In this document: positions 2,155-47,118 of the stretch, piece by piece
How the letters are laid out: every line of letters begins with the position of its first letter
Numbering within the stretch: position 1 is the stretch's first letter
Virus record (IMG/VR): IMGVR_UViG_3300045912_000220
From: a virus
DNA: 64,000 nucleotides
Reading direction: 5' to 3' (one strand)
Program-made: the position numbers and the translations under genes
Notes under the pieces: model-generated
Database searches by the model: none
Told to the model about the DNA's origin: nothing
The model's input: only the letters and a program-made list of their open reading frames with translations

Positions 2155-2599
2155 GCCCACCTATCTGCGGGCACTCGACGGCGGGGCCGCGCGCCGGCCG
2201 CTGGATCGCGCCGACGAACCGAGGCCGGCAGGCGACCTGTTCGACCCGCCGCCAGAGCTGTCGCCACGCCAGCAGGCAATCTGGCGCCACGCGATCGCGC
2301 ACGCGCCGCCGGGGATGCTGACCAAGCTGGACCAGTCGGTGTTCCTGTCATGGGTTGTGGCCGTCGACACGCTGGAGCTGGCCCGGCAGAAGGTGACCGA
2401 GCTGGGCCTGCTGGTGAAAACCCGTGACGGCAACACGATGCAGAATCCTTACCTGTCCATTCAGAACAAGCAGGCCGCCATCGTGATGAAGGCGGCGGCC
2501 GAGCTGGGTTTCAGTCCGACGGCCCGTACCCGTGTCAAAGTCCCGAAGCAAGCGCCCCGCGACAACCCGTTCGGCGAGCTCCGCACGCTCGACGACTGA
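2135..2599 (+). CDS. terS: Terminase small subunit, P27 family
   Basis: MRGRKPKPT start, QNPYL and ELGFSPTARTRV motifs; directly before terL. Confidence 0.92.
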   Translation: MRGRKPKPTYLRALDGGAARRPLDRADEPRPAGDLFDPPPELSPRQQAIWRHAIAHAPPGMLTKLDQSVFLSWVVAVDTLELARQKVTELGLLVKTRDGNTMQNPYLSIQNKQAAIVMKAAAELGFSPTARTRVKVPKQAPRDNPFGELRTLDD

Positions 2600-4292
2600 C
2601 GGCCGCGACTACGTGGCCGTGGCGATCGCCTATGCCGAGGACGCATTGGACGATCGCCGCGGCGAGCGTTACGGCCGATGGATCAGGCTGGCGGCCAAGC
2701 GGTTCCTCGCCGACCTGAAGCGGGCGCAGGCCAAACGGCCACCGTTCTATTTCTCGCCGAAACGGGCAAACGCGCACTGCCGCTTCATCGAAGCGCTGCC
2801 GCACGTCGAGGGCGTGTGGGCCACGCCGACTATCCGGCTTGAGCCGGCGCAGGTGTTTTTCGTGGTTCAGCTGTTCGGGTTCAGGAACACGGATGGCGGG
2901 CGCCGATTCACCGAGGCGCTGCTCTGCATCGCGCGCAAGAACGCCAAGTCGACGCTGGCCGCTGGCATTCTGCTGTCCTGCTTCTGCATGGAGCGCGAGC
3001 TAGGGGCGCAGGTGCTGAGCGCGGCAACAACTGGTAGCCAAGCGCGCATCCTCTGGGGCATCGCCAAGCGCATGGTGGAAATGACACCGGCGCTGCGGGA
3101 CACGTTCGACCTAGAGCCGTTCGCCAATGCCATCGCCCGGCCTGAGATTGGCGGCACGTTCAAGCCGATCAACGCCAAGGCGTCGACACAGGACGGCCTC
3201 AACCCGAGCCACGCCGGCCTCGATGAGCTTCACGCGCACAAGACCCATGACTTGCTGAACGTCCTGCGGTCGGCGGCCGGCGCCCGGTCGAACCCGCTGT
3301 GGCTCTACACGACGACCGAGGGGTACGAAACGCCCGGGCCGTGGCCAGAGGTGCGGGCCTATGCCCGGCAGGTGCTGCAGGGCCTGTTCCGGGCCGATCA
3401 CTTCCTCGCCTGCATCTGGGCGCTCGACGACGACGACGACGGGGAGGCCGAGTTCGACGAACGGAAATGGGTGAAGGCCAACCCGTTGCTGCCGGTCAAC
3501 CCGGTTCTTCGGGCCGAGCTGCGGAAGCTGGCCACGAACGCCAGAGCCATGCCGGGCACCCACGCCGAGTTCCGCATCAAGCGGCTGAACCTGCCGGCGG
3601 CCTCGGCGGCCGCGTGGGTGAACCTTCCGCGGTGGCGCCGGTGCTCCGGCCCGGTCGACCTTGAGGCATTGCGAGGCGCGCAATGCTGGGGGGCGTTCGA
3701 CCTTGCCAGCACCACGGATATGACCGCGTGGGCGCTGCTATGGCTGGTGGACGGGCACTACTACGCCCGGGTCCGCTACTGGGTCCCCGAGGCCGCCGTG
3801 CACCAGCGGACCGAGCGGCGATCGGTGCCGTACGCGGCGTGGGTGGCCGCCGGCCTGATCGAGCAGACTCCGGGCGACGTGGCCGACTACGACATCATCG
3901 AGCGGGCAATCCTCGAGGATTTCGAGCGGTTCGGGCCGTCCCGGATTGCCTTCGACCCGTGGAACGCCACCGCTACGGCTACCGCGTTGCTGAATCAGGG
4001 GTTACCCTTGGAGCAGTTCGTGCAGGGCACCCGGAGCTACAACGCCGCGATGAAGGCGTGCGAGGTGGCCTACACCGGGGGCAAGCTGAGCCACGGCGGC
4101 AACCCGGTGCTGGCGTGGAACATGGCCAACGTAGTAGCGAGGCGCGACGCGAACATGAACATCGCCCCTGACCGCAAGCGCTCGGCCGACAAGATAGACG
4201 GCGCGGCCGCGCTGTTCATGGCGTTCGGCCTGTCGGCGGCAGATAACGCCGGCAACCTTGACGCGATTCTGGCCAACCCGGTGAGCGCGTAA
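2532..4292 (+). CDS. terL: Terminase large subunit
   Basis: Walker A IARKNAKST, Walker B LDELHAH, YTTTEG coupling motif, nuclease FDLAST and KIDGAAA; start codon uncertain. Confidence 0.96.
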   Translation: MSKSRSKRPATTRSASSARSTTDGRDYVAVAIAYAEDALDDRRGERYGRWIRLAAKRFLADLKRAQAKRPPFYFSPKRANAHCRFIEALPHVEGVWATPTIRLEPAQVFFVVQLFGFRNTDGGRRFTEALLCIARKNAKSTLAAGILLSCFCMERELGAQVLSAATTGSQARILWGIAKRMVEMTPALRDTFDLEPFANAIARPEIGGTFKPINAKASTQDGLNPSHAGLDELHAHKTHDLLNVLRSAAGARSNPLWLYTTTEGYETPGPWPEVRAYARQVLQGLFRADHFLACIWALDDDDDGEAEFDERKWVKANPLLPVNPVLRAELRKLATNARAMPGTHAEFRIKRLNLPAASAAAWVNLPRWRRCSGPVDLEALRGAQCWGAFDLASTTDMTAWALLWLVDGHYYARVRYWVPEAAVHQRTERRSVPYAAWVAAGLIEQTPGDVADYDIIERAILEDFERFGPSRIAFDPWNATATATALLNQGLPLEQFVQGTRSYNAAMKACEVAYTGGKLSHGGNPVLAWNMANVVARRDANMNIAPDRKRSADKIDGAAALFMAFGLSAADNAGNLDAILANPVSA

Positions 4293-4295
4293 GCC

Positions 4296-5594
4296 GTGGC
4301 CGTAGCGTGGTCGTCGTGGATGCGGTACGTATTCGGCGGGCTCTGGAACCCGGAGTACGGCCCCCAGCTCGCCGGGCCCGGAAGTTTCGCCAACGAGGCC
4401 GGCCAGAGCGTCACCGATTCGCGCGCCATGCAGGTGGCGGCGGTGTTCCGGTGCATCCGGATCATCGCCGAAACGGCCGGCACGCTGCCGATGGTCGGCT
4501 ACCGGCGGCTGCCGAACGGGGACCGGGAGCCGTTGCCCAGCTCCCATTGGCTGCCCCAGCTGATCGACTACCCGAACGAAACGCAGACGGGCGATGAATT
4601 CCGCGAGGCCGTGGTGGCCCAGATGGCCGGCTGGGGCAACGCGTACGCGCTGGTCAGCCGGCAGTCCGCCGGGCGCGTCGTCGAGCTGTGGCCGGGCCGG
4701 GTCGAGGCAATGGAAGTCGAGCGGCGGCCGGATCGCACGCTGCTGTACCGCTACCCGGACGCGTCCGGCACCCGGCAGGCACTGCCACCCGGGCGCGTGC
4801 TGCACTTCCGGGCGTTCAGCATGGACGGGGTGATGGGCCTGTCGCCGCTGGCCATGGCCCGCGAATCGCTGGGCCTGACGGTGGGTGCCGAGCGGTTCGC
4901 GTCGTCGTTTTTCGCGCAGGGTGGCCGGCCCGCCGGCGTCATGACGGCCGATAAGGTGCTGACCGACAAGCAGCGCGAGCAGATTCGGAAGGAATACTCG
5001 GCGATGGCGGACGCGTCGAACCCGACCGGCAAGCGCTTCTGGCTGCTCGAGGGATCGCTGAAGTATCAGGCGATCAGCGTGAACCCGGCCGACATGCAGA
5101 TGCTGGAAACGCGAGCGTTCCAGATTGCCGACATCGCCCGATTCTTCGGGGTGCCGCTGTTCCTGCTCATGGAAACTGAAAAATCGACTAGCTGGGGCAG
5201 CGGTATCGAGCAGCAAAACATCGGCTTCTTGACGTACACGTTGCGGCCGTACCTGTCGCGGCTGGTGGCGACGTTTAACCGCTACGTCATCCCGGAGCGG
5301 GAGCGCGAGTCGCTGTTCGTCGACATCGACGAAGCGGCCCTGCTGTCGCTGGATTCGACGGCCCAGAAAGACCTGCTTGCGAGTCACGCAAACAACGGGA
5401 TCATGACCCGCAACGAAATCCGGCGCCGCCTGAAGCTGCCGGCCTACCCTGACCCTAACGCCGACGTCCTCACCGTGCAGACGGCGCTGACGCCGCTGGG
5501 AAAACTGGGTACGCTACCGGCAACGCCCGAGCCGGCGCCGCCACCGGCGGTATCGGCCGGGGGTAACGATGGCGCCGACGACGCCGAGGGCTGA
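4296..5594 (+). CDS. Portal protein, HK97 family
   Basis: AVFRCIRIIAETAG, GNAYA, DGVMGLSP, IARFFGVP, SWGSGIEQQ, MTRNEIR. Confidence 0.96.
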   Translation: MAVAWSSWMRYVFGGLWNPEYGPQLAGPGSFANEAGQSVTDSRAMQVAAVFRCIRIIAETAGTLPMVGYRRLPNGDREPLPSSHWLPQLIDYPNETQTGDEFREAVVAQMAGWGNAYALVSRQSAGRVVELWPGRVEAMEVERRPDRTLLYRYPDASGTRQALPPGRVLHFRAFSMDGVMGLSPLAMARESLGLTVGAERFASSFFAQGGRPAGVMTADKVLTDKQREQIRKEYSAMADASNPTGKRFWLLEGSLKYQAISVNPADMQMLETRAFQIADIARFFGVPLFLLMETEKSTSWGSGIEQQNIGFLTYTLRPYLSRLVATFNRYVIPERERESLFVDIDEAALLSLDSTAQKDLLASHANNGIMTRNEIRRRLKLPAYPDPNADVLTVQTALTPLGKLGTLPATPEPAPPPAVSAGGNDGADDAEG

Positions 5595-5598
5595 CGCT

Positions 5599-6333
5599 AT
5601 GCCGTGGCATGAACAGAAGGGGCAGCTGCACTATCTGGCCTGCCGTGACCGGCGCGACCTGCCGCTGGAACTGTGCGAGCTGAAGTTTCACACGAAGGAC
5701 GCGAGTAGCGGCGCGGTGCAGTTCACCGGCTACGCCGCGGTCTGGGGCCGGACGGACAGCTACGGCGACACCGTGCTCCGCGGTGCGTTCCTCGAAAGCC
5801 TGAAAGAACGCCGCCCGATGATGCTGTTCGGGCATTCGCCGGGGCGTGTTCCGGGCAAATGGCTCGAATGGGAAGAAGATGACAAGGGCCTCCTTATGCT
5901 CGGCGAGCTGACGCCCGGGCATTCAGAGGCGCAGGACATCGCTGCCAGCCTGAAGCACGGGGCGTTGAACGGCCTGAGCATCGGCGGCTACACGACCGAC
6001 TGGGAAAGCCGCGACAACGGCGGCCGGATCATCAAGGCGTTCGACTTGTACGAGGTGTCGATCGTCAGCATGCCGGCAGAACAGGAAGCCCGAATCGATA
6101 CCGCCAGCGTGAAAGCCGCGCTGGATCGCTGCTCGAAAGTTTCCGAAATAGAGGACCTGCTGCGCGAGGCCGCGGGCTGCTCTAAGTCGGCCGCGACCGC
6201 CATTGTGTCGCGCCTGTCGCGCCTGCTCCGGGGTGAGCCCGAGGCCGACCCGACGCCAGCCGCCGCCGGGCAACTGCTCGACGTGCTTCGTTCGACCCGA
6301 ATCCCGCGTTCACTCTTGGAGGGTGACAAATGA
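5599..6333 (+). CDS. Prohead (capsid maturation) protease, HK97 family
   Basis: FTGYAAVWG, DSYGD, GLSIGG, LYEVSIVSMPA. Confidence 0.93.
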   Translation: MPWHEQKGQLHYLACRDRRDLPLELCELKFHTKDASSGAVQFTGYAAVWGRTDSYGDTVLRGAFLESLKERRPMMLFGHSPGRVPGKWLEWEEDDKGLLMLGELTPGHSEAQDIAASLKHGALNGLSIGGYTTDWESRDNGGRIIKAFDLYEVSIVSMPAEQEARIDTASVKAALDRCSKVSEIEDLLREAAGCSKSAATAIVSRLSRLLRGEPEADPTPAAAGQLLDVLRSTRIPRSLLEGDK

Positions 6334-7628
6334 ACAAGTTCATCACGTCGGTCAGCAACGGCATGCGTGCCGCGCTGGCCAGCAAGCGCGCACTGCCGCG
6401 CGACTACTTCGGCCGGCCGATGGACCGGAAGGACACTCCCGCCCCCAGCGCCGCCACCATCAAAACGATGGAGGACCTTCGCACCGCGTTTCTCGAACAG
6501 CACCGCGAGCTGACGCAGTTCATCGAGAAGGCGAACGGCGAGCTGAAGGAAACGGGCAAGGTGGCCAACGAAACGGCCAGCGCCATGCGGGCGCTATCCG
6601 AGTCGCTGAACACGCTCGGGACCCGGCTCGACAAGGTGGAGGGCAAGGCTGACCGGCTGGGCGAGGGCGAGCGCACGGCGAAGTCGCTGGGCGAGCAGTT
6701 CGTCGAGTCCGAGGAATGGGCGTCGTCTGGCGCGCTGCTCAAGGTGGCCAAGGCCCGCTGGGAGACGCGCGCTATCGTCAACGCCACCGGCCAGAACCAG
6801 CCGCTGGTTCCCGACATGCGGGTGCCCGGTATCGTGGCTACGCCGAACCGGCGGCTGCGCATCCGGCAGCTGCTGCCGGCGGGCACCACGTCGTCGAATC
6901 TGGTGCAGTTCGCGAAGGAAAACGTGTTCACGAACAACGCCGGACCGCAGGCGGGTGGCTCGCCGACCGTCGCGGCCGAAAACGTCGTGAAGCCCGAGAG
7001 CGACATCACGTTCACGCTGGCGAACGCGCCCGTCGTCACCATCGCGCACTTCATCCTCGCGTCCCGGCAGGTGCTGGACGACGCGCCGATGCTGGCCAGC
7101 TACATCAACGGCCGGCTGCAGTACGGCCTCGCGCTCGAGGAGGACGAACAGCTGCTGCTGGGTGACGGCACCGTCGGTAAGCTCGACGGCCTAATGAATC
7201 AGGCGACGTTCTACAACCGCGCCCAGACGGGCACGAAGCTCGACTGGCTGCGCCGGGCCATCACGCAGCTGCAGCTGTCCGAGTACGACGCCGAGTTCAT
7301 GGTCCTGAACCCCGCCGACTGGGAGGACATCGAGCTGACCAAAGATCAGGACCTGCGCTACCTGATCGCAAACCCGGTGTCGATCCTCGGCCCGCAGCTC
7401 TGGGGCCTGCCGGTAGTGCCGACGAACACGATGCCCGAGGGCCAGTTCCTTGTGGCGAACGGTTCGATGGCTGCGCAAATCTGGGATCGGTCGCAGGCCG
7501 CCATCGAGGTCAGCCGCGAGGACTCGGATAACTTCCGGCGCAACATGGTGACCCTGCTCGCCGAGGAGCGGCTGGCGCTGACGGTGTACCGCCCGTCGGC
7601 GCTAATCAAGGGCGTGTTCAGCGTCTAA
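6330..7628 (+). CDS. Major capsid protein, HK97 fold
   Basis: Coiled-coil delta domain, EDEQLLLGDG, GLPVV, FRRNMVTLLAEERLALTVYRPSA. Confidence 0.96.
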   Translation: MNKFITSVSNGMRAALASKRALPRDYFGRPMDRKDTPAPSAATIKTMEDLRTAFLEQHRELTQFIEKANGELKETGKVANETASAMRALSESLNTLGTRLDKVEGKADRLGEGERTAKSLGEQFVESEEWASSGALLKVAKARWETRAIVNATGQNQPLVPDMRVPGIVATPNRRLRIRQLLPAGTTSSNLVQFAKENVFTNNAGPQAGGSPTVAAENVVKPESDITFTLANAPVVTIAHFILASRQVLDDAPMLASYINGRLQYGLALEEDEQLLLGDGTVGKLDGLMNQATFYNRAQTGTKLDWLRRAITQLQLSEYDAEFMVLNPADWEDIELTKDQDLRYLIANPVSILGPQLWGLPVVPTNTMPEGQFLVANGSMAAQIWDRSQAAIEVSREDSDNFRRNMVTLLAEERLALTVYRPSALIKGVFSV

Positions 7629-7648: not shown

Positions 7649-7678
7649 GGGGCGGGCCGGGCCATGACGGCCCGCCCC
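7649..7678 (+). terminator. GC-rich hairpin after the capsid gene (terminator/attenuator or mRNA stabiliser)
   Basis: GGGGCGGGCCG-8nt-CGGCCCGCCCC, 11-bp stem; only ATT follows, no U-tract. Confidence 0.5.
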
Positions 7679-7698
7679 ATTACCCGGGGAGAGCTGCC

Positions 7699-8100
7699 GT
7701 GTATCTGGTTCGTGCTCTGCGGCGCTTTGCGTCGGTCGACGAGGGGTGGATTCCCCGCGGCGCTACACTTAGCGTTCCCCGTGACCGCGCGTTCGAGCTG
7801 GCAGGGTCCGGCGTGGTCGAAATCCTCGAGGGCGACGATCGCGCGTGGAATTTCGAGACGAAAACCGAACCGCATGCATTGTCGCCAGTGGCCCCAGCGC
7901 CGCGCGCGTCGACGTTACCCGTACCGCCGGCTGGCCAACCGTCGCCGTTAACGACGGCTACCGCATCGCCGGCCACGCCGACCACGTCTACGCGGCCGAC
8001 GCGCGCTGGTGGGACTACCACGCGCCGGCGGTCCGTGCGCAGTGCCCCCGCGCGCAGCTCTGGACCTGCACCGGAGCCGCCGCCCGACGGCACGGACTGA
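7699..8100 (+). CDS. Small post-capsid protein with Pro/Thr-rich tail overlapping the next gene
   Basis: GTG start after GGAGAG; globular first ~58 aa; position typical of small head-associated genes. Confidence 0.6.
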   Translation: MYLVRALRRFASVDEGWIPRGATLSVPRDRAFELAGSGVVEILEGDDRAWNFETKTEPHALSPVAPAPRASTLPVPPAGQPSPLTTATASPATPTTSTRPTRAGGTTTRRRSVRSAPARSSGPAPEPPPDGTD

Positions 8101-8441
8101 ACCTGCTGCAGTATGAACGCGGGCCGGGCCTGAGCGTCCGGCCGGGCATCGTCCGGACCGGCGGTGCCGTGGGCAATTCCGGCGCCCAAGCCATCAACCT
8201 TGCCTACTTGCTCGGCGCCCGCCGGCTGGTGCTGATCGGGTTCGACATGGGCGAGCAGGGGCACTACTTCGGCGACCATCCGCCGGGCCTGCACGTCGTG
8301 AGCCCGTGGGAGCGTATGCGCGCCGGTATGGCCACGATGGCCGCGGAACTGGCCGCGCTGGGCGTGCAGGTGGTGAACTGTTCGCCGCTGACCGCCATCA
8401 CGTACTGGCCGCGCGCCGATCTACCCGACGTGCTGCCCTAG
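7845..8441 (+). CDS. Maf/MptE-like (DUF115-type) putative glycosyltransferase
   Basis: CIVASGPS, VAVND, DHVYAADARWW, NSGAQAINLAYLLGARRLVLIGFDM. Confidence 0.7.
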   Translation: MEFRDENRTACIVASGPSAARVDVTRTAGWPTVAVNDGYRIAGHADHVYAADARWWDYHAPAVRAQCPRAQLWTCTGAAARRHGLNLLQYERGPGLSVRPGIVRTGGAVGNSGAQAINLAYLLGARRLVLIGFDMGEQGHYFGDHPPGLHVVSPWERMRAGMATMAAELAALGVQVVNCSPLTAITYWPRADLPDVLP

Positions 8442-8472
8442 CGGGCCGCGCAACGGCCCGGCACAATGGGCC

Positions 8473-9291
8473 ATGCGCCGCGCGCATCTGCTGATCCGTC
8501 ACGAACCGCACTACCGGCGCGAAGCCTTCGCGGCTGGGTTGCAGGCGTGCGGCTATCAGGTGGCCGGCTACCCGCGCGAGCGCGCCCGCCCCGGCGACCT
8601 ACTGGTGATGTGGAACCGCTACGGCGCCAATCACGCGCTGGCCGAGCGCTTCGAGGCCGCCGGCGGCGTCGTGCTGGTGGCCGAGAACGGCCTCATGGGC
8701 CGTGATTCCCCGGGCGGCCCGTGGTACTCGCTGTTCCGCGGCGCGCCGGCGGGTGCCGGGTGGTCACCAGAGGGGCCGGCCGACCGGTGGTTCGCGCAGG
8801 GGTGGACGCTGGCCCCGTGGCGCGACATGCCAGCAGGCGACGTGCTGATCCTTGCGCAGCGCGGCATTGGCCCGCCCGGGGTGGCCCAGCCGCACGGCTG
8901 GCACCGCGACATCGCCCGTCGGCTGGCGCACTGGGGCCGCGTGCGCATCCGCGAACATCCCGGCGAGCGGCCGGCGCTGCCGCTGGCCGACGACCTAGCC
9001 AACGTCCGCGCCGTGGTCACGTGGGCCAGCGCGGCGGCGCTGAAGGCAATGGCGGCGGGGGTGCCGGTGTTCTACGGGTTCCGCAACTGGATAGGGAAGG
9101 GCTGCGGGCAATGGCTCGACGACGCGACGATCCGTGGGCCGTGCGCCCCGGTATTCCCCGACCGGACCGCGACCTGCGGGCTTGTTGGCTGGGCCACGTG
9201 GACGACCCGCGAGTTATCGACCGGCCAGCCTTTCCGGCACGTGCTCGGGTGGCCGTCTACCGCATCGCCGACCATCACCGATCACGCGTGA
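8473..9291 (+). CDS. KpsS/KpsC-like (capsule synthesis) GT-B glycosyltransferase 1
   Basis: VLILAQ...IREHPG...AVVTWASAAALKAMAAGVPVF, matching the HP and VVT-x-S-xx-EA-G-P pattern. Confidence 0.65.
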   Translation: MRRAHLLIRHEPHYRREAFAAGLQACGYQVAGYPRERARPGDLLVMWNRYGANHALAERFEAAGGVVLVAENGLMGRDSPGGPWYSLFRGAPAGAGWSPEGPADRWFAQGWTLAPWRDMPAGDVLILAQRGIGPPGVAQPHGWHRDIARRLAHWGRVRIREHPGERPALPLADDLANVRAVVTWASAAALKAMAAGVPVFYGFRNWIGKGCGQWLDDATIRGPCAPVFPDRTATCGLVGWATWTTRELSTGQPFRHVLGWPSTASPTITDHA

Positions 9292-10085
9292 TAAGCGACG
9301 CCATGGCCGAGGGCATCGCCGCCGCCGGGGACGTTCCGGTGCTGGCGTACGAGCACGAATTCGCCGGGCAGCCGGTCGCCGACGCTGCCGTGTTCTACGG
9401 CCTCGAGGGCCGCCTGCCGCACGTGTTCGCCGCCTACAAGGGGATCGGGCGCGCGGTGTACGTGGACCTTGGGTACTGGGATCGGCGCCGTGGCGGCCGT
9501 TTCGCCGGCTTCCACAAGATAGCGGTCAACGCCCGCCACCCGACGGCCTACTTCCGGCGGCCAGCCCACCCGCCTGACCGATTGCGCGCCGTGGCCGCGC
9601 CCATCAAGCCGTGGCGCAGGAACGGCCGGCATGTTCTGGTCGCTGGCATGGGCGACAAGGGCGCCAGAGCAGAGGGCTACGCCACCGAAGCGTGGGAGCG
9701 CTGGGCCATCGGCGAGCTGCAGCGGTATACCGCCCGCCCGATCGTTTACCGGCCGAAGCCCAGCTGGAAGAAGGCCCGCCCCATCGCTGGCACCATCTAC
9801 TCGCCGCGGACCCGGGAAGTCGCCGATGAGCTGCGCGACTGCTGGGCCGTGGTCACTCACCACAGCAACGTTGCCGTCGACGCGATCATGGCCGGCGTGC
9901 CGGCGTTCTGCTGGGAAGGGGTGGCCGCCTGTATGTCGGGGCAGGAGCTGGCTGGGATAGAGTCGCCACCGATGCCGGACGGCCGCGAGCAATGGGCTGC
10001 CGACATCGCCTACACGCAGTGGAGCGTCGAGGAAATGCGGACCGGCGCAGCGTGGCGCCATCTGCGGCAGGAGGGGCTTCTGTGA
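9249..10085 (+). CDS. KpsS/KpsC-like GT-B glycosyltransferase 2
   Basis: HVLVAG...IVYRPKP...AVVTHHSNVAVDAIMAGVPAF...AYTQWSVEEM; GTG start inferred. Confidence 0.65.
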   Translation: MAVYRIADHHRSRVISDAMAEGIAAAGDVPVLAYEHEFAGQPVADAAVFYGLEGRLPHVFAAYKGIGRAVYVDLGYWDRRRGGRFAGFHKIAVNARHPTAYFRRPAHPPDRLRAVAAPIKPWRRNGRHVLVAGMGDKGARAEGYATEAWERWAIGELQRYTARPIVYRPKPSWKKARPIAGTIYSPRTREVADELRDCWAVVTHHSNVAVDAIMAGVPAFCWEGVAACMSGQELAGIESPPMPDGREQWAADIAYTQWSVEEMRTGAAWRHLRQEGLL

Positions 10086-10945
10086 GGATCGTTTTCTGGC
10101 ATTCGGACAAGCCGCGCGAACGGCTGCTGGCCGATGCGTTCGCCGACGGTGCCCGGGTGCACGGCGACACGGTGGAGCTGCGGCCGCTGGAATCGGGTCC
10201 CGTGTCGCCGGCCGACGCCGACGTGGTGTGCATGGTCGGGGTGAAGTCGCGCGAGCTGTACCGCGTGCACCAGCGCGAGGGCATTCACGTCGTCTACTTC
10301 GACAAGGGCTACACGCGTCACGCCGCGCCGACGCCGGTGAAGCTCTGGGAGTATTGGCGGGTGTCGGTCGACCGGCATCATCCGACCGAAATGCTCATGG
10401 ACATTGCCCGCCCGATGGACCGCGCCGACCGGCTCGGGCTGGTCATGCAGCGATGGCGCAAGCCGACGAAGCGCGGCCACGTGCTGATCGCCGGCAGCTC
10501 GGCGAAGTACCACCAGTTCTATGGGCTGAAGGCGCCGACGCCGTACGCGCACAAGCTGGTGGCTGCCCTGCGCGAGCATACGGCACGGCCGATCACGTAC
10601 CGGCCCAAGCCCAGCTGGAAGGATGCGGAGCCAATCGAGGGGACCGAGTACAGCGGCACCGATCAGACGATCGAGCAAGCGCTGGCCGGCGCGCATTGTC
10701 TGGTGACCCACGGCAGCAACGCGGTGTTCGAGGCGGTGCTGCTCGGCATCCCGTGCGTGGTGCTGGGCGACGCGGTGGCCCGGCCAATCAGTAGCACCAG
10801 CGTCGCCGACGTTGAGGCGCCCTACTTGGCGACGTATGAACAGCGGCACCAGTGGCTTGCGAATTTGGCTTATTGGCAGTGGACGATGCCGGAACTGCAC
10901 CGCGGCGAGGCGTGGCAGTATCTGCGCCCGCTGATCTACCGATGA
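10082..10945 (+). CDS. KpsS/KpsC-like GT-B glycosyltransferase 3
   Basis: HVLIAG...ITYRPKP...LVTHGSNAVFEAVLLGIP...AYWQWTMPEL; GTGA overlap with previous stop. Confidence 0.65.
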   Translation: MRIVFWHSDKPRERLLADAFADGARVHGDTVELRPLESGPVSPADADVVCMVGVKSRELYRVHQREGIHVVYFDKGYTRHAAPTPVKLWEYWRVSVDRHHPTEMLMDIARPMDRADRLGLVMQRWRKPTKRGHVLIAGSSAKYHQFYGLKAPTPYAHKLVAALREHTARPITYRPKPSWKDAEPIEGTEYSGTDQTIEQALAGAHCLVTHGSNAVFEAVLLGIPCVVLGDAVARPISSTSVADVEAPYLATYEQRHQWLANLAYWQWTMPELHRGEAWQYLRPLIYR

Positions 10946-11547
10946 ACCGTCACACGCGTCCGTCGCAGGACTACGAGGCCGCCGTTCGCGCGGCGAGCCG
11001 TCATCACATGCGATCGAAAACGTACAGCGGGTTGCTGCTGCGCCCGCACGCGGCCGCCATCGGCGCCCTGATCCGTGAACACGGCTGCCGGTCAGTGCTC
11101 GACGTGGGCTGCGGAAAGGGCGAGCAGTACCGCTGGGTATCGCCCGGGCCGCCGCATTCGGCGGTGCCGTCCGGCCTGACGCTGGAGCAGTTCTGGGGCG
11201 TCGAGGTCACGAAATATGACCCGGCGGTGCCGGCGTACGTGGCCGAGCCGCGCGGCACGTTCGACGCGGTGCTGTGCACGCACGTGCTTGGATCGGTTCC
11301 CACCGTCGACCTGCCGTGGTTCATCGACCGGCTCTACGGGTGGGCCTCGCGGGTGGTCTACGTGGCGGAAAAGCTCGGCCCAGTCAAGAAAAGGGTGCTC
11401 GACGACGTGCCGGGCTTGCCGCGCGGGTACCAGCGCGCCGACTGGCTGCGAGTATTGGACCGGCCCGCGGGCCGTGGCCTGCACGTGGTCCTGTCAACAA
11501 CCGGCGACGAATCCGGGACCATCCGGGAACAGGTGCGCATCCGATGA
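10942..11547 (+). CDS. Class I SAM-dependent methyltransferase
   Basis: VLDVGCGKG, YDPAVP, FDAVLCTHVL; ATGA overlap. Confidence 0.85.
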   Translation: MNRHTRPSQDYEAAVRAASRHHMRSKTYSGLLLRPHAAAIGALIREHGCRSVLDVGCGKGEQYRWVSPGPPHSAVPSGLTLEQFWGVEVTKYDPAVPAYVAEPRGTFDAVLCTHVLGSVPTVDLPWFIDRLYGWASRVVYVAEKLGPVKKRVLDDVPGLPRGYQRADWLRVLDRPAGRGLHVVLSTTGDESGTIREQVRIR

Positions 11548-12542
11548 GAATTCGCGTCCTTGGCGGCGGGTGGTACGGCTGCCATCTGGCGCTGGCGATG
11601 CAGCGCGACGGGCACGAAGTCGAGCTGCACGAAATCGCCGACCGGCTGTTCGCTGGGGCCTCGGGTGGCAACCCGGCCCGGCTGCATCTGGGCTTCCACT
11701 ACCCGCGCTCGCGGCTCACTCGCGTGCTATGTCAGGAAAGCCACCGGCTGTTCATGGCCCAGTACGGCGCGCTCACGCGCACCGTGCCAGTCAACGTCTA
11801 CGCCGTCGCAGACGGCGAAAGCCTGATCGACTGGGGCACCTATCGGCAGGTGCTGCGCGGCGAGGTCGACTTCGTGGAGCTTGAGCGGCCGTCCGAGCTT
11901 GGGCTGGCGAACGTCGAGGGCGCCATGCTGACCGGTGAGCGGCACATTGTCATCGATGAGGCGCGCGCATGGTTCACGGAACAGCTGGGCGATGCGGTCC
12001 GGCTGAACATGCCCCCGGACGCCGACCCGGACGGCTGGGACTGGACGATCGATTGCACGTTCTGCGCCCGCGACGCCGAGCGGGTCGACCGGTACGAGCC
12101 GTGCGTAACGGCGCTGCTCGAGGGGCCAACCGATCGCGCGGTCACCATCATGGACGGCCCGTTCCCGTCCGTTTACCCGTGGAACGAACAGCAGGGCCTG
12201 TCGAGCCTGACCAGCGCCCGCTACACGCCGCTGGCCCGCTGCTCGACGTACTGGCATGCCCGGCAGCTGCTCGACGACTGTTCGGCCAATGACGCGATGC
12301 GCCGCGGGGTGCTAATGCTCGGCCAGATGGCGAAGTTCTGGCCGGCCGTGCAGGAGCTGTACCGCGTCGTCGACGCCCGCCTGACCATCCGCGCTCAGCC
12401 CATGAGCGGGTCGGACGCCCGGTTCGTCGACGTGGTGCGCCCGCTGCCCCGGACGCTGCGGGTGAGGGCGGGGAAAATCGACGCGATCCTGCACGCCGAA
12501 CAGCTGATCCGCGAGGCGATATGTTCACCGCAACCGGGGTAG
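11544..12542 (+). CDS. FAD-dependent oxidoreductase (DAO-like)
   Basis: N-terminal VLGGGWYGC dinucleotide motif, ASGGNPARLHLGFHYPRS; ATGA overlap. Confidence 0.82.
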   Translation: MRIRVLGGGWYGCHLALAMQRDGHEVELHEIADRLFAGASGGNPARLHLGFHYPRSRLTRVLCQESHRLFMAQYGALTRTVPVNVYAVADGESLIDWGTYRQVLRGEVDFVELERPSELGLANVEGAMLTGERHIVIDEARAWFTEQLGDAVRLNMPPDADPDGWDWTIDCTFCARDAERVDRYEPCVTALLEGPTDRAVTIMDGPFPSVYPWNEQQGLSSLTSARYTPLARCSTYWHARQLLDDCSANDAMRRGVLMLGQMAKFWPAVQELYRVVDARLTIRAQPMSGSDARFVDVVRPLPRTLRVRAGKIDAILHAEQLIREAICSPQPG

Positions 12543-13114
12543 GGTCAACGATCGTTCGCGAGCTGGCCACCATCACCGGCGAACACGCGCAGCGGATCGA
12601 GGGCGACCTAAGCCAGTACGGCGCCGAGCTGACCATCCCGGACGGTAGCCACCGGTACGTGTTAGCCGCCGGCGTCCTGCACGGTCGAGCGGTGCAGGAC
12701 CTGACCCCGGAACAGGTGCGCGAAACGCTGGCCGTTAATCTGGTCTCCGTTGTGCGAATCTGCGACACGGTGCTCCGGCGGGACCCGAAGGCCCGCATCT
12801 GCATTATCGGCAGCCAGTCCGGCTGCCGCTGGTCATTCGACGAGCTGTACGCGCTGGCCAAGGGAGCCGTCCACCGGTACGTTGAGCAGCGGCCGACGCG
12901 CTGCTGTCAGCAGCTGGTGGCCGTCGCGCCCCCGATCATCGCCGACTCCGGGATGACGATGCGGCGGCACGATTACCCAGCCGTGCTGGCAACCCGCCCG
13001 CACTGCCGGGCGGTCGACGTGGCCCGGGTGGTGCACCGGCTGTTGTGGACGCCGCGGGAGCTGGCGCCGTCGGGGCTGGTGGTGCCGGTGCCCGCTGGGA
13101 ACGTGATGGCATGA
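12521..13114 (+). CDS. Short-chain dehydrogenase/reductase-like protein
   Basis: TGVGSTI, AAGVL, VNL, IIGSQSG, YALAK (YxxxK). Confidence 0.72.
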   Translation: MFTATGVGSTIVRELATITGEHAQRIEGDLSQYGAELTIPDGSHRYVLAAGVLHGRAVQDLTPEQVRETLAVNLVSVVRICDTVLRRDPKARICIIGSQSGCRWSFDELYALAKGAVHRYVEQRPTRCCQQLVAVAPPIIADSGMTMRRHDYPAVLATRPHCRAVDVARVVHRLLWTPRELAPSGLVVPVPAGNVMA

Positions 13115-13719
13115 CGGACAAGCGGAAGCCGCCGCCGGACGCCGACCGGCCCCTGTACCTGCGGGCGCTGGCCTACGCGCGATCCGGTGCTGCCGCCATC
13201 GACGGCGGCGCCAACGTCGGCAACTGGTCACGGTGGATGGCTGAACACTTCGACGCGGTGCACGCGTTCGAGCCGAACCCGCGCTGCTGGCCCGCGTTCG
13301 AGGACATGCCGCCGGGCGTGGTGCTGCACCGCGCCGCGCTCGGCGAGGCCGCGGGCGAGGCGTGGCTGTACCAGCCACCGAAGCGCAGGGCCACCACGGC
13401 GGGCTACGTCGGGTCGGCAGAGCATGCCCCGCCCGTTGAGCGGCCACGCGCGGAGCCGGTCGCGGTGGCCACGGTCGACGGCCTCGGGCTGACCCGGTGC
13501 GGCCTGCTCAAGCTCGACATCGAGGGTGGCGAGCTGTACGCCCTGCGCGGCTCCCGGCAGACGCTGGCCCGCTGCCGACCCGTCGTCGTCGTCGAGGTAT
13601 CGGCGCTCAGCCACAAGCATTACGGGGTGCCAGAGGCCGACGTGCGCCGGCTGCTCAGCGACGCCCGGTACACGCGGCTAACGCTCGCCGCGCCGAACGA
13701 AATATGGGTGCCGCTTTGA
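13111..13719 (+). CDS. FkbM-family methyltransferase
   Basis: IDGGANVG, VHAFEPNP, LLKLDIEGGE, RPVVVVE; ATGA overlap. Confidence 0.9.
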   Translation: MTDKRKPPPDADRPLYLRALAYARSGAAAIDGGANVGNWSRWMAEHFDAVHAFEPNPRCWPAFEDMPPGVVLHRAALGEAAGEAWLYQPPKRRATTAGYVGSAEHAPPVERPRAEPVAVATVDGLGLTRCGLLKLDIEGGELYALRGSRQTLARCRPVVVVEVSALSHKHYGVPEADVRRLLSDARYTRLTLAAPNEIWVPL

Positions 13720-14450
13720 AGCTCACGATCTGCACGGGCTGGTCGCCGGCCGGGTACCACGAATACGGCCGACGGTTCGCCGAGTCATTCGCACGGCACT
13801 GGCCAGAGTCGGTCGAGCTGGTGGTCTACGGCGAGGAACCCGTACCGCTGCCCCGGGGCACGTTCCGGCCACTGTCGGACATCCCGGGGTGCGCCGAATG
13901 GCTGGCCGCCCACGATGCGCCGCGTTACCGGGGGCACCGTGACGGCCCGGACTACAAATGGCGGCTGGACGCGTGGAAGTTCAGCCGGCAGGGGTTCATC
14001 CCGGCCGCGGCTGCTGCGGAGCTGCCGGACACCGGCACCCCGCAGTTTCTCGCGTGGCTCGACGGGGATGTCATCACGCACCGCAAGGTGCCCGAGGGCT
14101 GGCCGCAGCTACTGCTGCCGCCGGGCTTCGACGTGGCCTATCTGGGCCGGCCGCCCAAGCACTCCGAGATTGGATTCCAGCTCTACCGGCTGAACGGACC
14201 GGGGTCGCCTGCGCTGCGGCTGCTCGAAATGTTCCGCGAGCTGTACCTGTCGGGCGCGGTATTCCGGCTGCGCGAATGGCACAGCGCGTTCGTGTGGGAT
14301 GAAGCCCGGGTGCGTAGCGGCGCCCGAGCATTCAACCTGACGCCGAACGGCCACGGCCACGTCTGGCACCAGTCGCCGCTGGCCCGCTACACCGACCATC
14401 TGAAGGGGAAGCGCAAAGCCTATGACCGCAGCCCAGAGCGCAGGCGATAG
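13716..14450 (+). CDS. GT-A fold glycosyltransferase (DxD)
   Basis: WLDGDV DxD motif, KFSRQG, HSAFVWD, DHLKG; TTGA overlap (ATG 13704 is an alternative start). Confidence 0.7.
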   Translation: MKLTICTGWSPAGYHEYGRRFAESFARHWPESVELVVYGEEPVPLPRGTFRPLSDIPGCAEWLAAHDAPRYRGHRDGPDYKWRLDAWKFSRQGFIPAAAAAELPDTGTPQFLAWLDGDVITHRKVPEGWPQLLLPPGFDVAYLGRPPKHSEIGFQLYRLNGPGSPALRLLEMFRELYLSGAVFRLREWHSAFVWDEARVRSGARAFNLTPNGHGHVWHQSPLARYTDHLKGKRKAYDRSPERRR

Positions 14451-15207
14451 CGGGCCGCTGACCGTCTACGTCGGCTGGGACCCGCGCGAGGTCGCAGCCT
14501 TCGACGTAACGGTGGCCACGCTGAAGGCCCGGGCGTCCGTCCCGGTCCGCGTGGTTCCGCTGAAACGCCGGCGGCTCGAGCGTGCCGGCCTGCTGACACG
14601 GGTGGTGCAGCCCGTAGCGGCGGGTGACCGGCGGCTGGTCAGCGGCCGCTGGTACACGTTCCCGGCCGGCACGCTCTGGGATGTCACCAGCGGCGCCCCG
14701 ATGGCCACCGAGTTCGCGGTTTCCCGGTTTCTCGTGCCGGCGCTGGCCCAGTCCGGCTGGGCGCTGTTCGTCGACTGCGACGTCGTGTTTCTCGGCGACG
14801 TGGCCGAGCTGCTTGAGGTGGCCGACCCGCAATACGCCGTGCAGGTGGTCAAGCACGGCGAGCTTCCCGGCGAAGGGCTGAAAATGGACGGGCAGCCGCA
14901 GCTGGCCTACCCGCGGAAAAACTGGTCGTCGGTGGTGCTCTGGAACTGCGACCACGCCGGGAACCGGCGCCTGACGCTACGCGAGGTCAACGGCTGGCCG
15001 GGCCGGGACCTGCACGCGTTCCGGTGGCTCGCCGACGAACATATCGGCAGCCTGCCGGCCGGCTGGAATTGGCTGGTCGGGGTGCAGCCTCGCCCGCCCG
15101 ACCCGAAGGTGGCACACTTCACGCTCGGCGGGCCATGGCTGCCCGGGTGGAAAGGTGCCGAGCATGACCAGCTCTGGGTATCAGCTGCGGCGACTGTTCG
15201 GCCCTGA
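14422..15207 (+). CDS. GT8-like glycosyltransferase
   Basis: VYVGWDPRE, TEFAVSRFLVP, FVDCDVVF, RKNWSSVVLWN, LPAGWNWLVG, HFTLGGPW. Confidence 0.82.
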   Translation: MTAAQSAGDSGPLTVYVGWDPREVAAFDVTVATLKARASVPVRVVPLKRRRLERAGLLTRVVQPVAAGDRRLVSGRWYTFPAGTLWDVTSGAPMATEFAVSRFLVPALAQSGWALFVDCDVVFLGDVAELLEVADPQYAVQVVKHGELPGEGLKMDGQPQLAYPRKNWSSVVLWNCDHAGNRRLTLREVNGWPGRDLHAFRWLADEHIGSLPAGWNWLVGVQPRPPDPKVAHFTLGGPWLPGWKGAEHDQLWVSAAATVRP

Positions 15208-15790
15208 AGTCGAGCCGATCACCGTCGCCGAGGCGAAGGCCCACTGCCGGGTCGACGCCGACCTGACGGCCGAGGACGACCTGTTCGCCGGCTGGATTAC
15301 CGCGGCCCGGGAGCTGGCCGAGGATTACACGAAGCGCACGTTCTGCGAGTCCGTGTGGGAACTGTGGCTGGACGATTTCCCGCGCTTTTCCGATGACCTG
15401 CGGGTGGTCCTGCCGATGGGCGCCCCGTTCGTCGCCGTCGAGTCCGTGTCCTACCTGTCGACGAATGGCGACCGCGTCGAGCTGGCCGGGTATGAGGTCC
15501 TGCCAGACGAACCGCCAGCCATCCGGCCGTCCCCGTGGACCGTCTGGCCCGTCGTGAGCTGCGCCGCCGGGGCCGTCCGGGTCCGGTACCGGGCCGGCTA
15601 CGTCGGCGAGGGGTCGCCGGCCGGGGCCGAGGCGGTACCGCAGCGCGTCAAGCAGGCCCTGCGGATGCTGGTGGGGCACTGGTACGCGAACCGGGAAAGC
15701 GTGACCGCCGGCGGCTCGACCGGCGCTGCGCCTGTCGAGGTGCCATACAGTTTCGAGCGGGCGCTCGACCCGCTGCGGGTGTACCCGTGA
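15164..15790 (+). CDS. Head-tail connector (gp6/phiE125 gp8-like)
   Basis: EPITVAEAKAHCRVD, AARELAEDYT, VPQRVKQALRMLVGHWYANRE. Confidence 0.92.
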   Translation: MTSSGYQLRRLFGPEVEPITVAEAKAHCRVDADLTAEDDLFAGWITAARELAEDYTKRTFCESVWELWLDDFPRFSDDLRVVLPMGAPFVAVESVSYLSTNGDRVELAGYEVLPDEPPAIRPSPWTVWPVVSCAAGAVRVRYRAGYVGEGSPAGAEAVPQRVKQALRMLVGHWYANRESVTAGGSTGAAPVEVPYSFERALDPLRVYP

Positions 15791-15930: not shown

Positions 15931-16302
15931 GTGCAGGCCGGGCGACTGCGCCACCGGATCACGATTCAGCAGGCCGTCGACGTGAAAACGGCCACGGGGG
16001 CCGTGCGGACCGAGTACGTGGACTGGCTCGAGACGTGGGCCGAGGTCGCCCCGCTGACGCCGCGCGAGTTCTGGGCCGCCCAGCAGGTGCAAAGCGACAT
16101 CACTGCCAAGGTGCGGGTCCGGTACCGTCCGGGCATGAACGCGAAAATGCGGGTGCGCCACCAGCGGGAAGCGGGTAGTCCGTCCGTCGTCGACGTGTAC
16201 GACGTTGAGGGGCCGCCGGTCGAGGTTGAGGGCCGGCGCTGGGAAGTATGGCTTATGTGCCGCCGGCGGGACGCCGAGGGCTTCCGGAGCGGGAACCCGT
16301 AA
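15931..16302 (+). CDS. Head closure/head-tail adaptor (SPP1 gp16-like)
   Basis: MQAGRLRHRITIQ, WAEVAPL-RE, VRVRYRPG. Confidence 0.92.
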   Translation: MQAGRLRHRITIQQAVDVKTATGAVRTEYVDWLETWAEVAPLTPREFWAAQQVQSDITAKVRVRYRPGMNAKMRVRHQREAGSPSVVDVYDVEGPPVEVEGRRWEVWLMCRRRDAEGFRSGNP

Positions 16303-16733
16303 TGCCGCTGGAAGGCGTCGCCGAGCTCGACCGGTTGCTGGCGCTGCTGCCGCAGGCGGTGCAGCCGAAGGTGCTGCGGAAGGCCGTGCGCGCCGGCATC
16401 CGCCCGGCCGAAAAACGGGCCAAGGCCACGGTGCCGGTCGGCACGGTGGCTCATCGGACCCGCAAGGGGCGGCTGGTGCCGCCCGGGTTCGCGAAGCGGT
16501 CAATCCGGGTGGTGACCAAGGCCGACCGGACCGGCCAGAAGGTCTCGGCGGCGCTGGGCGTGCGTCGGGATGCGTTCTACGCGGTGCAGTTCGTGGAACG
16601 CGGCACCAGCCGCCACCCGGCCCGCCCATGGCTGCGCCGGGCATTCGACGAAACGGTCGAGGCCCAGCAGAAGGCGCTGGCCGACAAGCTCCGGGCGGAA
16701 ATCCTGAAGTTTGCGCGAGGCGCTAGACGATGA
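16302..16733 (+). CDS. HK97 gp10-family tail completion protein
   Basis: LEGVAEL, FYAVQFVERGTSRHPARPWLRRAFD; TAATG overlap. Confidence 0.9.
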   Translation: MPLEGVAELDRLLALLPQAVQPKVLRKAVRAGIRPAEKRAKATVPVGTVAHRTRKGRLVPPGFAKRSIRVVTKADRTGQKVSAALGVRRDAFYAVQFVERGTSRHPARPWLRRAFDETVEAQQKALADKLRAEILKFARGARR

Positions 16734-17134
16734 GCGGGCCTAACCTGCACGAGTTCCTGACGGCCGTGCCCGCCGTGGCGGCCGTCGTCGGCGACCGGGT
16801 GTACCCGGACATCATCCCGCAGCACGTCTACGACGAGGTTACCCGGTCCCCGTGCATCGTCTACCAGCGGCTCGGCGCCACGCGGTCGGCCACGTACTGC
16901 GGCCACGACCTGCTTGTGGCGGCGGCGATTCAGGTGGACCATTACGCGCAGGATTTCGACGCGGCTGTGCAGCTGGGGGACCTGACCCGGCAGGCACTGC
17001 GGGACTACTCGGGTACCATGGGGACGGTGCGGGTCCGCTGGTGCCGGCTGGATAGCGAGACGCACTTGGTCGAGCCAGAGCCGGGGCTGTTCCGGCTATC
17101 GGCCGACTGGACTATCTGGTACGTTGAAGCCTGA
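16730..17134 (+). CDS. Tail terminator (DUF3168-like)
   Basis: VGDRVYP, PCIVYQR, IQVDHYA; synteny. Confidence 0.85.
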   Translation: MSGPNLHEFLTAVPAVAAVVGDRVYPDIIPQHVYDEVTRSPCIVYQRLGATRSATYCGHDLLVAAAIQVDHYAQDFDAAVQLGDLTRQALRDYSGTMGTVRVRWCRLDSETHLVEPEPGLFRLSADWTIWYVEA

Positions 17135-17151: not shown

Positions 17152-17580
17152 ATGGCATCCGAAGATACCCTGCTCGGAAACGATTTCGCGTTTCAGCTCG
17201 GCGACGGCGGGTCGCCCGAGGCGTTCACGGACATGTGCGCCGCTGTCGACGTGTCCGGCATCGGTGCGGAAAAGCCGCTGGTCGACGTGACAAGCCTGTG
17301 CGACACGGCCCGCACGTACCGCAACGGCCTCGCCGACGGCATCGAGTTCCCGCTGGTGGTGAATTTCCAGCAGGGCGACGCCGCCACCCGTTCCGTCTAC
17401 GCCAACTTCCGGAATGACACCGTGCGCACGTTCCGGCTCCGGCTGAAGGACACGCCGGGTGAGTATTTCGAGTTCCGGGCCATCGTCCGCGGGTGGACCC
17501 TGACGCCGCCTATTGGCGAGAAGGCCACCATGACCTTCACGTTGAAGGTCACCGGGGATATTGAATGGGTGCAGGCGTAA
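17152..17580 (+). CDS. Major tail (tube) protein
   Basis: GDGGSPEAF, VDVTSL, GLADG, TFTLKVTG; RBS GGAGG. Confidence 0.88.
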   Translation: MASEDTLLGNDFAFQLGDGGSPEAFTDMCAAVDVSGIGAEKPLVDVTSLCDTARTYRNGLADGIEFPLVVNFQQGDAATRSVYANFRNDTVRTFRLRLKDTPGEYFEFRAIVRGWTLTPPIGEKATMTFTLKVTGDIEWVQA

Positions 17581-26266: not shown

Positions 26267-27715
<1,449 letters not shown>

Positions 27716-46344: not shown

Positions 46345-46746
46345 GTGTATCTGGTTCGTGCTCTGCGGCGCTTTGCGTCGGTCGACGAGGGGTGGATTCC
46401 CCGCGGCGCTACACTTAGCGTTCCCCGTGACCGCGCGTTCGAGCTGGCAGGGTCCGGCGTGGTCGAAATCCTCGAGGGCGACGATCGCGCGTGGAATTTC
46501 GAGACGAAAACCGAACCGCATGCATTGTCGCCAGTGGCCCCAGCGCCGCGCGCGTCGACGTTACCCGTACCGCCGGCTGGCCAACCGTCGCCGTTAACGA
46601 CGGCTACCGCATCGCCGGCCACGCCGACCACGTCTACGCGGCCGACGCGCGCTGGTGGGACTACCACGCGCCGGCGGTCCGTGCGCAGTGCCCCCGCGCG
46701 CAGCTCTGGACCTGCACCGGAGCCGCCGCCCGACGGCACGGACTGA
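46345..46746 (+). CDS. Small post-capsid protein (copy 2)
   Basis: Copy of 7699-8100. Confidence 0.6.
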   Translation: MYLVRALRRFASVDEGWIPRGATLSVPRDRAFELAGSGVVEILEGDDRAWNFETKTEPHALSPVAPAPRASTLPVPPAGQPSPLTTATASPATPTTSTRPTRAGGTTTRRRSVRSAPARSSGPAPEPPPDGTD

Positions 46747-47087: not shown

Positions 47088-47118
47088 CGGGCCGCGCAAC
47101 GGCCCGGCACAATGGGCC

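Follow-up and report, generated by a model that had tools for sequence, protein, structure and literature searches.

Precedents for virus-encoded glycan synthesis

In the mycobacteriophages Che8, Corndog and Myrna, phage-encoded glycosyltransferases (GTs) glycosylate capsid and tail subunits of the virion (Freeman et al. 2023, as cited in PMC12619734). As far as that citing account presents it, this is the nearest known system to the one described here: a cassette of ten predicted glycan-building genes (A to J; 7845-15207, plus strand) in a 64,000-nucleotide stretch of viral DNA (IMG/VR record IMGVR_UViG_3300045912_000220; hereafter the window), lodged between the genes for the major capsid protein (MCP) and the head-tail adaptor of an uncultured phage. 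In both cases, cytoplasmic phage GTs are proposed to decorate the capsid and tail-tube subunits of a siphophage. On the same account, the two differ in several respects: the mycobacteriophage case comes from experiment, whereas we infer ours from its genes; the host here is very likely Gram-negative, an alphaproteobacterium by its relatives; the enzymes here have GT42/Maf-like and KpsS/KpsC-like folds of the cytidine monophosphate (CMP)-sugar kind; the cassette is much larger, with six transferases, two methyltransferases and a redox pair, and lies inside the head-neck operon; and the candidate acceptor is a Ser-Pro site of the capsid E-loop rather than a C-terminus. The reading that we favour, with a confidence a little past even, is that the cassette glycosylates the phage's own structural proteins, and with them the virion, using host sugars of the CMP-3-deoxy-D-manno-oct-2-ulosonic acid (CMP-Kdo) type.

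Two further classes of systems offer partial parallels. The chlorovirus PBCV-1 builds a complex methylated glycan on its major capsid protein and, like the cassette, draws on virus-encoded soluble transferases and methylation; its A064R protein is a soluble transferase that includes a methyltransferase activity. The virus-encoded enzymes that glycosylate its capsid comprise A064R, A075L and others (PMC11571054). Unlike the present phage, however, PBCV-1 is a eukaryotic giant virus whose glycans are N-linked and made by other GT families from UDP- and GDP-sugars. Phage DNA glycosylation (the T4 glucosyltransferases, 5-hydroxymethylcytosine glycans, and arabinosyl-5-hydroxycytosine in RB69 and DLP3) likewise employs GT-A and GT-B enzymes, sometimes with several GTs acting in series and sometimes with Kdo; unlike the present locus, those systems always feature base-hydroxylating enzymes and nucleotide kinases, none of which was found in our Pfam searches of this genome. 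To our knowledge, virion glycosylation by phage enzymes has been demonstrated only in a few mycobacteriophages.

A ten-gene cassette embedded in the late structural operon

The phage genome is 38,646 bp long with a G+C content of ~69%, and the window covers it read round, every 40-mer repeating at an offset of 38,646, so that a second copy of the ten-gene block lies at 46491-53853. At 7,363 bp, the block makes up 19.05% of the genome. In HK97 the adaptor gene begins 34 nt past the capsid gene, and in the Mesorhizobium phage vB_MseS-P1 a single 70-aa gene separates the two; hence, the block is an insertion into the usual order. For each of the ten open reading frames (ORFs), GC at third codon positions rises to 0.84-0.92 in exactly the frame predicted, with a frame switch at every junction, and the gene order protease-MCP-A-B-C-D-E-F-G-(H)-I-J-adaptor-closure-neck-terminator-tube is kept in three other IMG/VR contigs (L004-L006), whose proteins are 40-67% identical to those of the block; H is present in L004 only and missing from L005 and L006. 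This combination of frame-specific composition and conserved order establishes all ten ORFs as real genes.

The genes are tightly chained. There are 4-nt overlaps at 10082, 10942, 11544, 13111 and 13716, and longer ones at the F/G (22 nt), I/J (29 nt) and J/adaptor (44 nt) junctions. The start of C is most likely the GTG at 9249, which would give a 43-nt overlap with B and is preferred because it keeps the first strand common to D and the orthologues. Kyte-Doolittle analysis in 19-residue windows detected no membrane segment in any of the ten proteins: the highest mean is at most 2.0, and the sole value above 1.6 falls within D, in a Rossmann core modelled at high confidence. Between 6000 and 17000 we found no promoter-like site, and only three terminator-like sites against 4.6 expected by chance, that is, no excess. 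Given also that J overlaps the adaptor gene, we conclude that the ten genes belong to the late structural operon. Thus, the gross architecture given in the original prediction is borne out: ten co-oriented ORFs of ~7.4 kb occupying ~19% of a 38.6-kb genome, chained by start/stop overlaps at the five positions named above, coding for soluble proteins, expressed late, and parting the capsid gene from a connector to which it is normally near-adjacent. The synteny search in IMG/VR that it had proposed likewise recovered the block beside the MCP gene in the same order in L004-L006.

A minimal GT42/Maf-like transferase

The ten enzyme assignments made in the original prediction hold at the level of profile or fold in Pfam, PHROG, Foldseek and Atlas comparisons, with a qualification for B, C and D that is given below. 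Gene A (7845-8441, plus strand) codes for a minimal GT42/Maf-like (MptE-like) transferase of 198 aa that matches phrog_4603 (7.6e-33). Its match to PF01973 scores 23.7 bits, below the curated cutoff of 34.6, and covers residues 102-138 only, while some homologues at 35-42% identity carry PF01973. The structural model of A (predicted local distance difference test, pLDDT, 95) has as its top PDB folds the sialyltransferases CstII (1ro7) and CstI (2p2v) and the Maf structure 5mu5 (Foldseek probability 1.00, TMq 0.56-0.63), as against only 0.38-0.41 for the archaeal MptE kinase 8sd5; going by this model, A has the GT42-type catalytic fold. Across 52 homologues D52, H140, H145 and N178 are invariant and P146 near-invariant, and residues 14-18 form an ASGPS nucleotide loop, as read from the sequence rather than from a residue-level superposition on CstII.

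With Maf and other GT42 enzymes A shares the catalytic-domain fold; it has an N-terminal nucleotide loop and a D-H-P motif that may correspond to theirs, and Maf proteins modify a self-assembling structural protein in the cytoplasm. Unlike the ~600-aa Maf proteins, A is only 198 aa long, falls below the PF01973 cutoff and has none of their flanking domains (TMt 0.22 against a 632-residue Maf chain).

Homologues of A occur in well-known phages. In phage P1 (L012, 3944-5130) the homologue is PmgO, encoded in the late pmgL operon, and the adjoining PmgP aligns weakly, as a second match, with the stretch of A that contains NSGAQAINLA. On these alignments, that operon may encode two MptE-like proteins. 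In the Pseudomonas phage PAJU2 the homologue ORF010 (AP009624.1, 3781-4350) bears the depositor label "structural protein", the same as that given to the PAJU2 capsid and tail-tube proteins. If this label rests on an analysis of virion proteins, the ORF010 enzyme may travel with the particle.

B, C and D define a largely viral family with a Kdo-transferase-like fold

Genes B (8473-9291), C (9249-10085) and D (10082-10945), all on the plus strand, encode modified GT-B proteins of ~280 aa. C and D are 33% identical over 285 aa and B shares their C-terminal part, marking the three as paralogues, of which B is the divergent one. Orthologues of B are found in L006, L009 and L021-L026; the one in L005 (8350-9192) has a single in-frame stop codon, representing either a sequencing error or a decaying copy. 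The model of D (pLDDT 91) is closest to WbbB (Z 13.9), KpsC (13.7) and KrkA (11.7), its 15 best chains all being Kdo transferases (Z 11.5-13.9) and other GT-B folds scoring 9.9 or less. Against Swiss-Prot models, the top eight hits are LpsZ, KpsC, FixF, LipA, KpsS and LipB proteins, with LpsZ of Sinorhizobium first. D is thus structurally closest by a clear margin to the GT107 (KpsS/KpsC), GT99 (WbbB) and GT140 (KrkA) families.

Two motifs define the retaining beta-Kdo transferases: QXXXD, which supplies the nucleophile, and (K/R)XHP, which binds CMP (PMC12887879, 2026). At the strand end equivalent to the former, where genomic Capsule_synth proteins show Q-L-Q-S-D, sequence (not structural) alignment places Q-R-G-I-G in B, A-G-M-G-D in C (an A-x-x-x-D) and A-G-S-S-A in D, so that QXXXD is missing in B and D. 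At the second motif, B itself has the canonical R-E-H-P and B-type proteins R-E-H-P, R-K-H-P or R-P-H-P, whereas the C and D types show R-P-K-P, with the Arg and Pro invariant and Lys replacing His. A [D/E]-x-G-Y motif in the N-terminal domain of the family (V-D-L-G-Y in C, F-D-K-G-Y in D; B has E-N-G) matches the Y-E-F-G-Y of the genomic Capsule_synth proteins. The B/C/D proteins are without the helical insertions of Kdo transferases. Assignment to Capsule_synth (PF05159) by sequence was tried and rejected, as only 6 of 41 family members matched it, with a best E-value of 0.092; an hhalign comparison of the family with six genomic PF05159 domains aligned 38 columns only (probability 57%). The family profile matches 5,309 cluster representatives at 50% identity, and the nearest Atlas clusters are almost all viral.

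The lack of QXXXD in B and D, the R-P-K-P of C and D and the want of a PF05159 match indicate that these proteins are not members of the Kdo transferases: they form a separate, mostly viral family that is KpsS/KpsC-like in fold only. The original description of three KpsS/KpsC-like GT-B proteins therefore stands for the fold, which is nearest to KpsS, KpsC and WbbB, but does not extend to membership of the family. From the modelled fold, the family probably also shares CMP-sugar chemistry with the Kdo transferases.

Methyltransferases, a redox pair and two GT-A enzymes

The remaining genes, E to J, all lie on the plus strand. E (10942-11547) is a class I S-adenosylmethionine-dependent methyltransferase (PF13489, 30.1 bits against a cutoff of 27) with a VLDVGCGKG motif, and H (13111-13719) is an FkbM-family methyltransferase (PF05050, 55.7 bits against 22.7; phrog_8156, 5.3e-22) and the variable member of the cassette. 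F (11544-12542) is an FAD oxidoreductase of the DAO family with a GxGxxG motif; its PF01266 score is borderline (27.6 bits against 27.9), and structural comparison in the Atlas gives template-modelling (TM) scores of 0.88-0.95 to DAO clusters. G (12521-13114) is a short-chain dehydrogenase/reductase (SDR) of 197 aa (PF00106, 32.6 bits against 26.6). We considered and discarded the possibility that it is truncated, as the TGxGS loop at residue 4 and the YxxxK motif are both retained, making it short but intact. In other phages the homologue of F is fused to a GFO_IDH_MocA reductase, and here F is followed by G, which suggests that F and G form an oxidise-then-reduce pair.

I (13716-14450, with a possible alternative start at ATG 13704) is a virus-specific GT-A-like transferase with a D-G-D motif. 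It has no Pfam match, while its Atlas model (predicted TM-score 0.91) aligns to viral clusters with TM scores of 0.76-0.89, some of them (0.76-0.82) carrying GT8 (PF01501) or Gly_transf_sug (PF04488) domains. Some I-like proteins of other phages are fused to MptE-like and Methyltransf_24 domains. J (14422-15207) is a GT8-like GT-A transferase with a D-C-D motif (phrog_28018, 7.5e-50; weak PF01501) and is 33-37% identical to annotated nucleotide-diphospho-sugar transferases of Caulobacter, Pelagibacter and Synechococcus phages. By motif, together with the Atlas model for I and the profile matches for J, both are assigned as GT-A enzymes with DxD motifs. Single-sequence searches of the PDB with A, D, I and J gave no match, and profile searches of it only weak matches to GT1 or CstII.

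The cassette recurs at different sites in many phages

The A and B/C/D core, usually with methyltransferases and J, is found in many phages and prophages, mostly of Alphaproteobacteria, and among the versions compared the cassette in the window is the largest. It is placed between the MCP and the adaptor/neck genes in the window, L004-L006, a Rhodobacterales prophage and "Tetraselmis viridis virus" S20 (TvV-S20), which is really a 39-kb HK97-like phage. Elsewhere, it occurs between the portal and head-closure (Hc) genes (L026), after Hc (PAJU2, L022 and L024), between the tail chaperones and the tape measure (a Bosea prophage), between the large terminase (TerL) and the portal (Mesorhizobium CA8 and M. 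jarvisii; L029 and L031), after the tail proteins (gp126-131 of the jumbo phage CcrColossus) and upstream of the terminase (another Mesorhizobium prophage; L007-L009). B, C, two D-like genes, E, F, G, I and J are also present on L025 (JAHFDG010000019.1), a 62-kb contig binned as "Candidatus Methanoperedens"; the contig most likely comes from a phage and was wrongly assigned to that archaeal bin.

Our search of the literature on MptE-like or Maf proteins in phages and on Kdo with capsids turned up no paper describing the cassette, and the papers on PAJU2, phiCbK and Caulobacter phages do not discuss these genes. At the DNA level, the block has no match among 50,697 phage records.

The proposed target of the glycan

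We propose that the cassette, expressed late and acting in the cytoplasm, would build an oligosaccharide on at least one of the phage's structural proteins during their synthesis and assembly. The cassette holds no genes for sugar-nucleotide synthesis, so the donors would have to come from the host. A to D are predicted to use CMP-Kdo, a sugar nucleotide that all Gram-negative cells contain, or another CMP-ulosonic acid related to it, and I and J would use UDP-hexoses. F and G might oxidise and re-reduce a sugar position after transfer, altering its stereochemistry or readying it for further change, and E and H would O-methylate the chain. The candidate acceptors are conserved x-Ser-Pro sites at the tip of the capsid E-loop and in the adaptor, head-closure and tail-tube proteins. 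We speculate that an acidic, hydrophilic coat may benefit the particle by changing how it adsorbs, how stable it is or how it is recognised.

The repeated, independent insertion of the cassette inside morphogenesis operons, including the terminase/portal and chaperone/tape-measure junctions, which rarely tolerate extra genes, points to selection for co-expression with virion proteins. On the acceptor side, the exposed tip of the capsid E-loop has an 8-residue insertion, PQAGGSPT (residues 204-212), situated nine residues before the Lys aligned with K169 of HK97. This insertion, PQAG[GQ]SPT, is common to the window, L005 and L006 and is missing in the cassette-less HK97, vB_MseS-P1 and PsSC8; it is also missing in TvV-S20, so that among the phages compared it is confined to those carrying the full cassette at this site. 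Gly-Ser-Pro occurs nine times in the virion proteins against 1.8 expected, with 0 of 2000 shuffles reaching nine, and Ser-Pro is kept at 4 of 4 alignable sites in relatives. Allowing for the number of tripeptides, this enrichment is only suggestive.

Several points weigh against a virion target. The support for it is circumstantial and the acceptor putative: the E-loop insertion is a single evolutionary event, and the Gly-Ser-Pro excess has a p of ~0.1 once corrected for the number of tripeptides, being one among thousands. No enzyme of the cassette can be named as the initiator; A, having none of the Maf flanking domains, may act on a sugar rather than on a protein; and the donor sugar is a guess from the modelled fold, B and D being without QXXXD. 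The argument from position is weakened by a lineage (L013, L014 and a JGI contig) whose cassette stands after DUF2800, single-stranded DNA-binding, DNA polymerase A and SNF2 genes instead of structural ones, and in the Mesorhizobium prophage of L007-L009 it has near it genes for a dATP/dGTP pyrophosphohydrolase (PF04447) and an HD_4 protein (1332-1850 and 4069-4716), a pair reminiscent of the editing of deoxynucleotide pools for modified DNA. Finally, several ORFs of the genome have no recognisable family.

Of the alternatives, the one that survives best, although we regard it as unlikely, is that the cassette remodels an envelope glycoconjugate of the host late in infection or in lysogens. 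The product might be a lipid-linked poly-Kdo-like chain, lipopolysaccharide, capsule, or host flagellin or pilin, and the remodelling would either hide receptors, sparing progeny from loss to debris, or keep other phages out. Indeed, the closest folds to B, C and D are those of KpsS, KpsC, LpsZ, LipA/B and WbbB, enzymes with no membrane segments of their own that modify lipid-linked acceptors on the inner side of the membrane; Sinorhizobium, the source of the top Swiss-Prot model (LpsZ), and the likely hosts belong to one bacterial class; and Maf enzymes modify host flagellin. However, the cassette is without a flippase, an ABC exporter, a polymerase or a lipid-carrier enzyme. It is moreover embedded in a late operon whose neck and tail genes need read-through, and hence should not be expressed in a lysogen and should switch on only in the last minutes before lysis. 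The known genes of serotype-converting phages, by contrast, sit near attachment sites and encode membrane proteins.

We find it decidedly improbable that the enzymes glycosylate phage DNA as a hypermodification blocking host nucleases. Phage GT-A and GT-B enzymes do add mono- to trisaccharides, including Kdo, to DNA bases (bioRxiv 10.1101/2023.12.21.572611; PMC13326640), and a proposal of this kind would accommodate the lineage with the cassette straight after replication genes, in which a dGTP diphosphohydrolase is encoded nearby, as well as the pyrophosphohydrolase and HD genes of the Mesorhizobium prophage. Against this, every known attachment of sugar to DNA depends on a hydroxylated base, produced by a C5-methylase with 5mYOX, or by a thymidylate-synthase homologue with kinases (bioRxiv 10.1101/2023.12.21.572611; PMC13326640). 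Pfam searches of 30 further ORFs of the genome, some of which are without any match, recovered no C5-methylase, TET-like oxygenase, thymidylate-synthase homologue, dNMP kinase or DNA polymerase, the sole DNA methylase being an N6/N4-type ParB fusion. Most occurrences of the cassette are inside head, neck or tail modules, and P1, which has a homologue of A, has well-studied, ordinary DNA.

We give equally little credence to modification of a non-virion target, be it a cytoplasmic protein of the phage or host or a small molecule: the F/G redox pair and the two methyltransferases would also suit natural-product tailoring, and a small conserved ORF precedes A, but there are no scaffold-synthesis genes, the six transferases point to a glycan chain, and the strong link with morphogenesis operons would be left unexplained.

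Returning to glycosylation of the virion, a more specific form of it is tentative, and we hold it to be distinctly less probable than the general proposal: this phage and a large, mostly alphaproteobacterial group of phages may divert host CMP-Kdo or a related CMP-ulosonic acid and, with a virus-specific family of KpsS/KpsC-like and Maf-like transferases, decorate Ser-Pro sites in the capsid E-loop, the neck and the tail tube with a short glycan that is acidic, methylated and capsule-like. As part of the same tentative picture, such a virion "capsule" might be made by enzymes with catalytic motifs unlike those of all characterised Kdo transferases.

Flanking genes and other features of the genome

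All the flanking genes of the morphogenesis module are on the plus strand. Upstream of the block are the ParB-fused N6/N4 DNA methylase (657 aa; 181-2154), directly 5' of the small terminase (2135-2599), then TerL (2532-4292), the portal (4296-5594), an S78 protease (5569-6333) and the HK97-type MCP (6330-7628; PF05065, 8.9e-51), which is 43% identical to HK97 gp5. Downstream are the head-tail adaptor (15164-15790; phrog_442, 6.1e-29; PF05135), head closure (15931-16302), neck (16248-16733), tail terminator (16730-17134) and tail tube (17152-17580). Elsewhere in the genome we recognised no gene for an integrase, a polymerase or a helicase. A tail-fibre-like protein (26267-27715) with a DUF2793 N-terminus and a weak match to the carbohydrate-binding CBM_19 domain at its C-terminus has two of the nine Gly-Ser-Pro sites.

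Immediately past the capsid stop codon is a GC hairpin (7650-7679, plus strand) with a perfect 11-bp stem and an 8-nt loop and without a U-tract. L005 and L006 have comparable GC hairpins in this position, where the HK97 annotation marks a putative terminator. The hairpin is likely an attenuator or an mRNA-end structure, and it probably determines how much capsid protein is made relative to the enzymes encoded downstream.

The hairpin is followed by a small ORF on the plus strand, whose conserved part (7699-7847) comprises ~47-50 residues with the pattern ALRRF...G...L.VPR..A..L...GVV.I.E. It is 39% identical over 66 aa to its equivalent in L006 (3759-4211), and the same pattern recurs in L005 (7617-7883). 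In the window, L005 and L006 alike it is in the -1 frame relative to A and has no in-frame stop until far inside A (at 8100 in the window). It may encode a separate small protein or be an upstream ORF that throttles the translation of A. The further idea that it supplies an N-terminal domain of A through a -1 frameshift was set aside: there is no conserved slippery heptamer, and the extensions of longer A homologues are only low-complexity stretches from mis-called starts, which lend no support to a frameshift-joined domain.

The genome was found in DNA sequencing runs of hot-spring and microbial-mat metagenomes, and our search of sequencing runs, all hits being DNA metagenomes, recovered no RNA run containing it. 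The GH108 endolysin and the relatives of the phage in Alphaproteobacteria agree with the Gram-negative host first suggested for it.

Implications

Several cultured phages carry versions of the cassette, namely Pseudomonas PAJU2 (ORF010-013), P1 (pmgO/pmgP), CcrColossus and its relatives, and TvV-S20, so that the question of its target is testable now. The B/C/D proteins would constitute a new branch of the sialyl/Kdo-transferase superfamily that is without the usual nucleophile. If virion glycosylation by this cassette is true, it would draw on acidic sugars activated with CMP and on families of enzymes that have yet to be connected with viruses, and, with 5,309 cluster representatives in the B/C/D family, glycosylation of the particle would be common among the phages of Gram-negative bacteria. 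This would in turn bear on phage adsorption, on the stability of virions in the environment and on the immune recognition of therapeutic phages.

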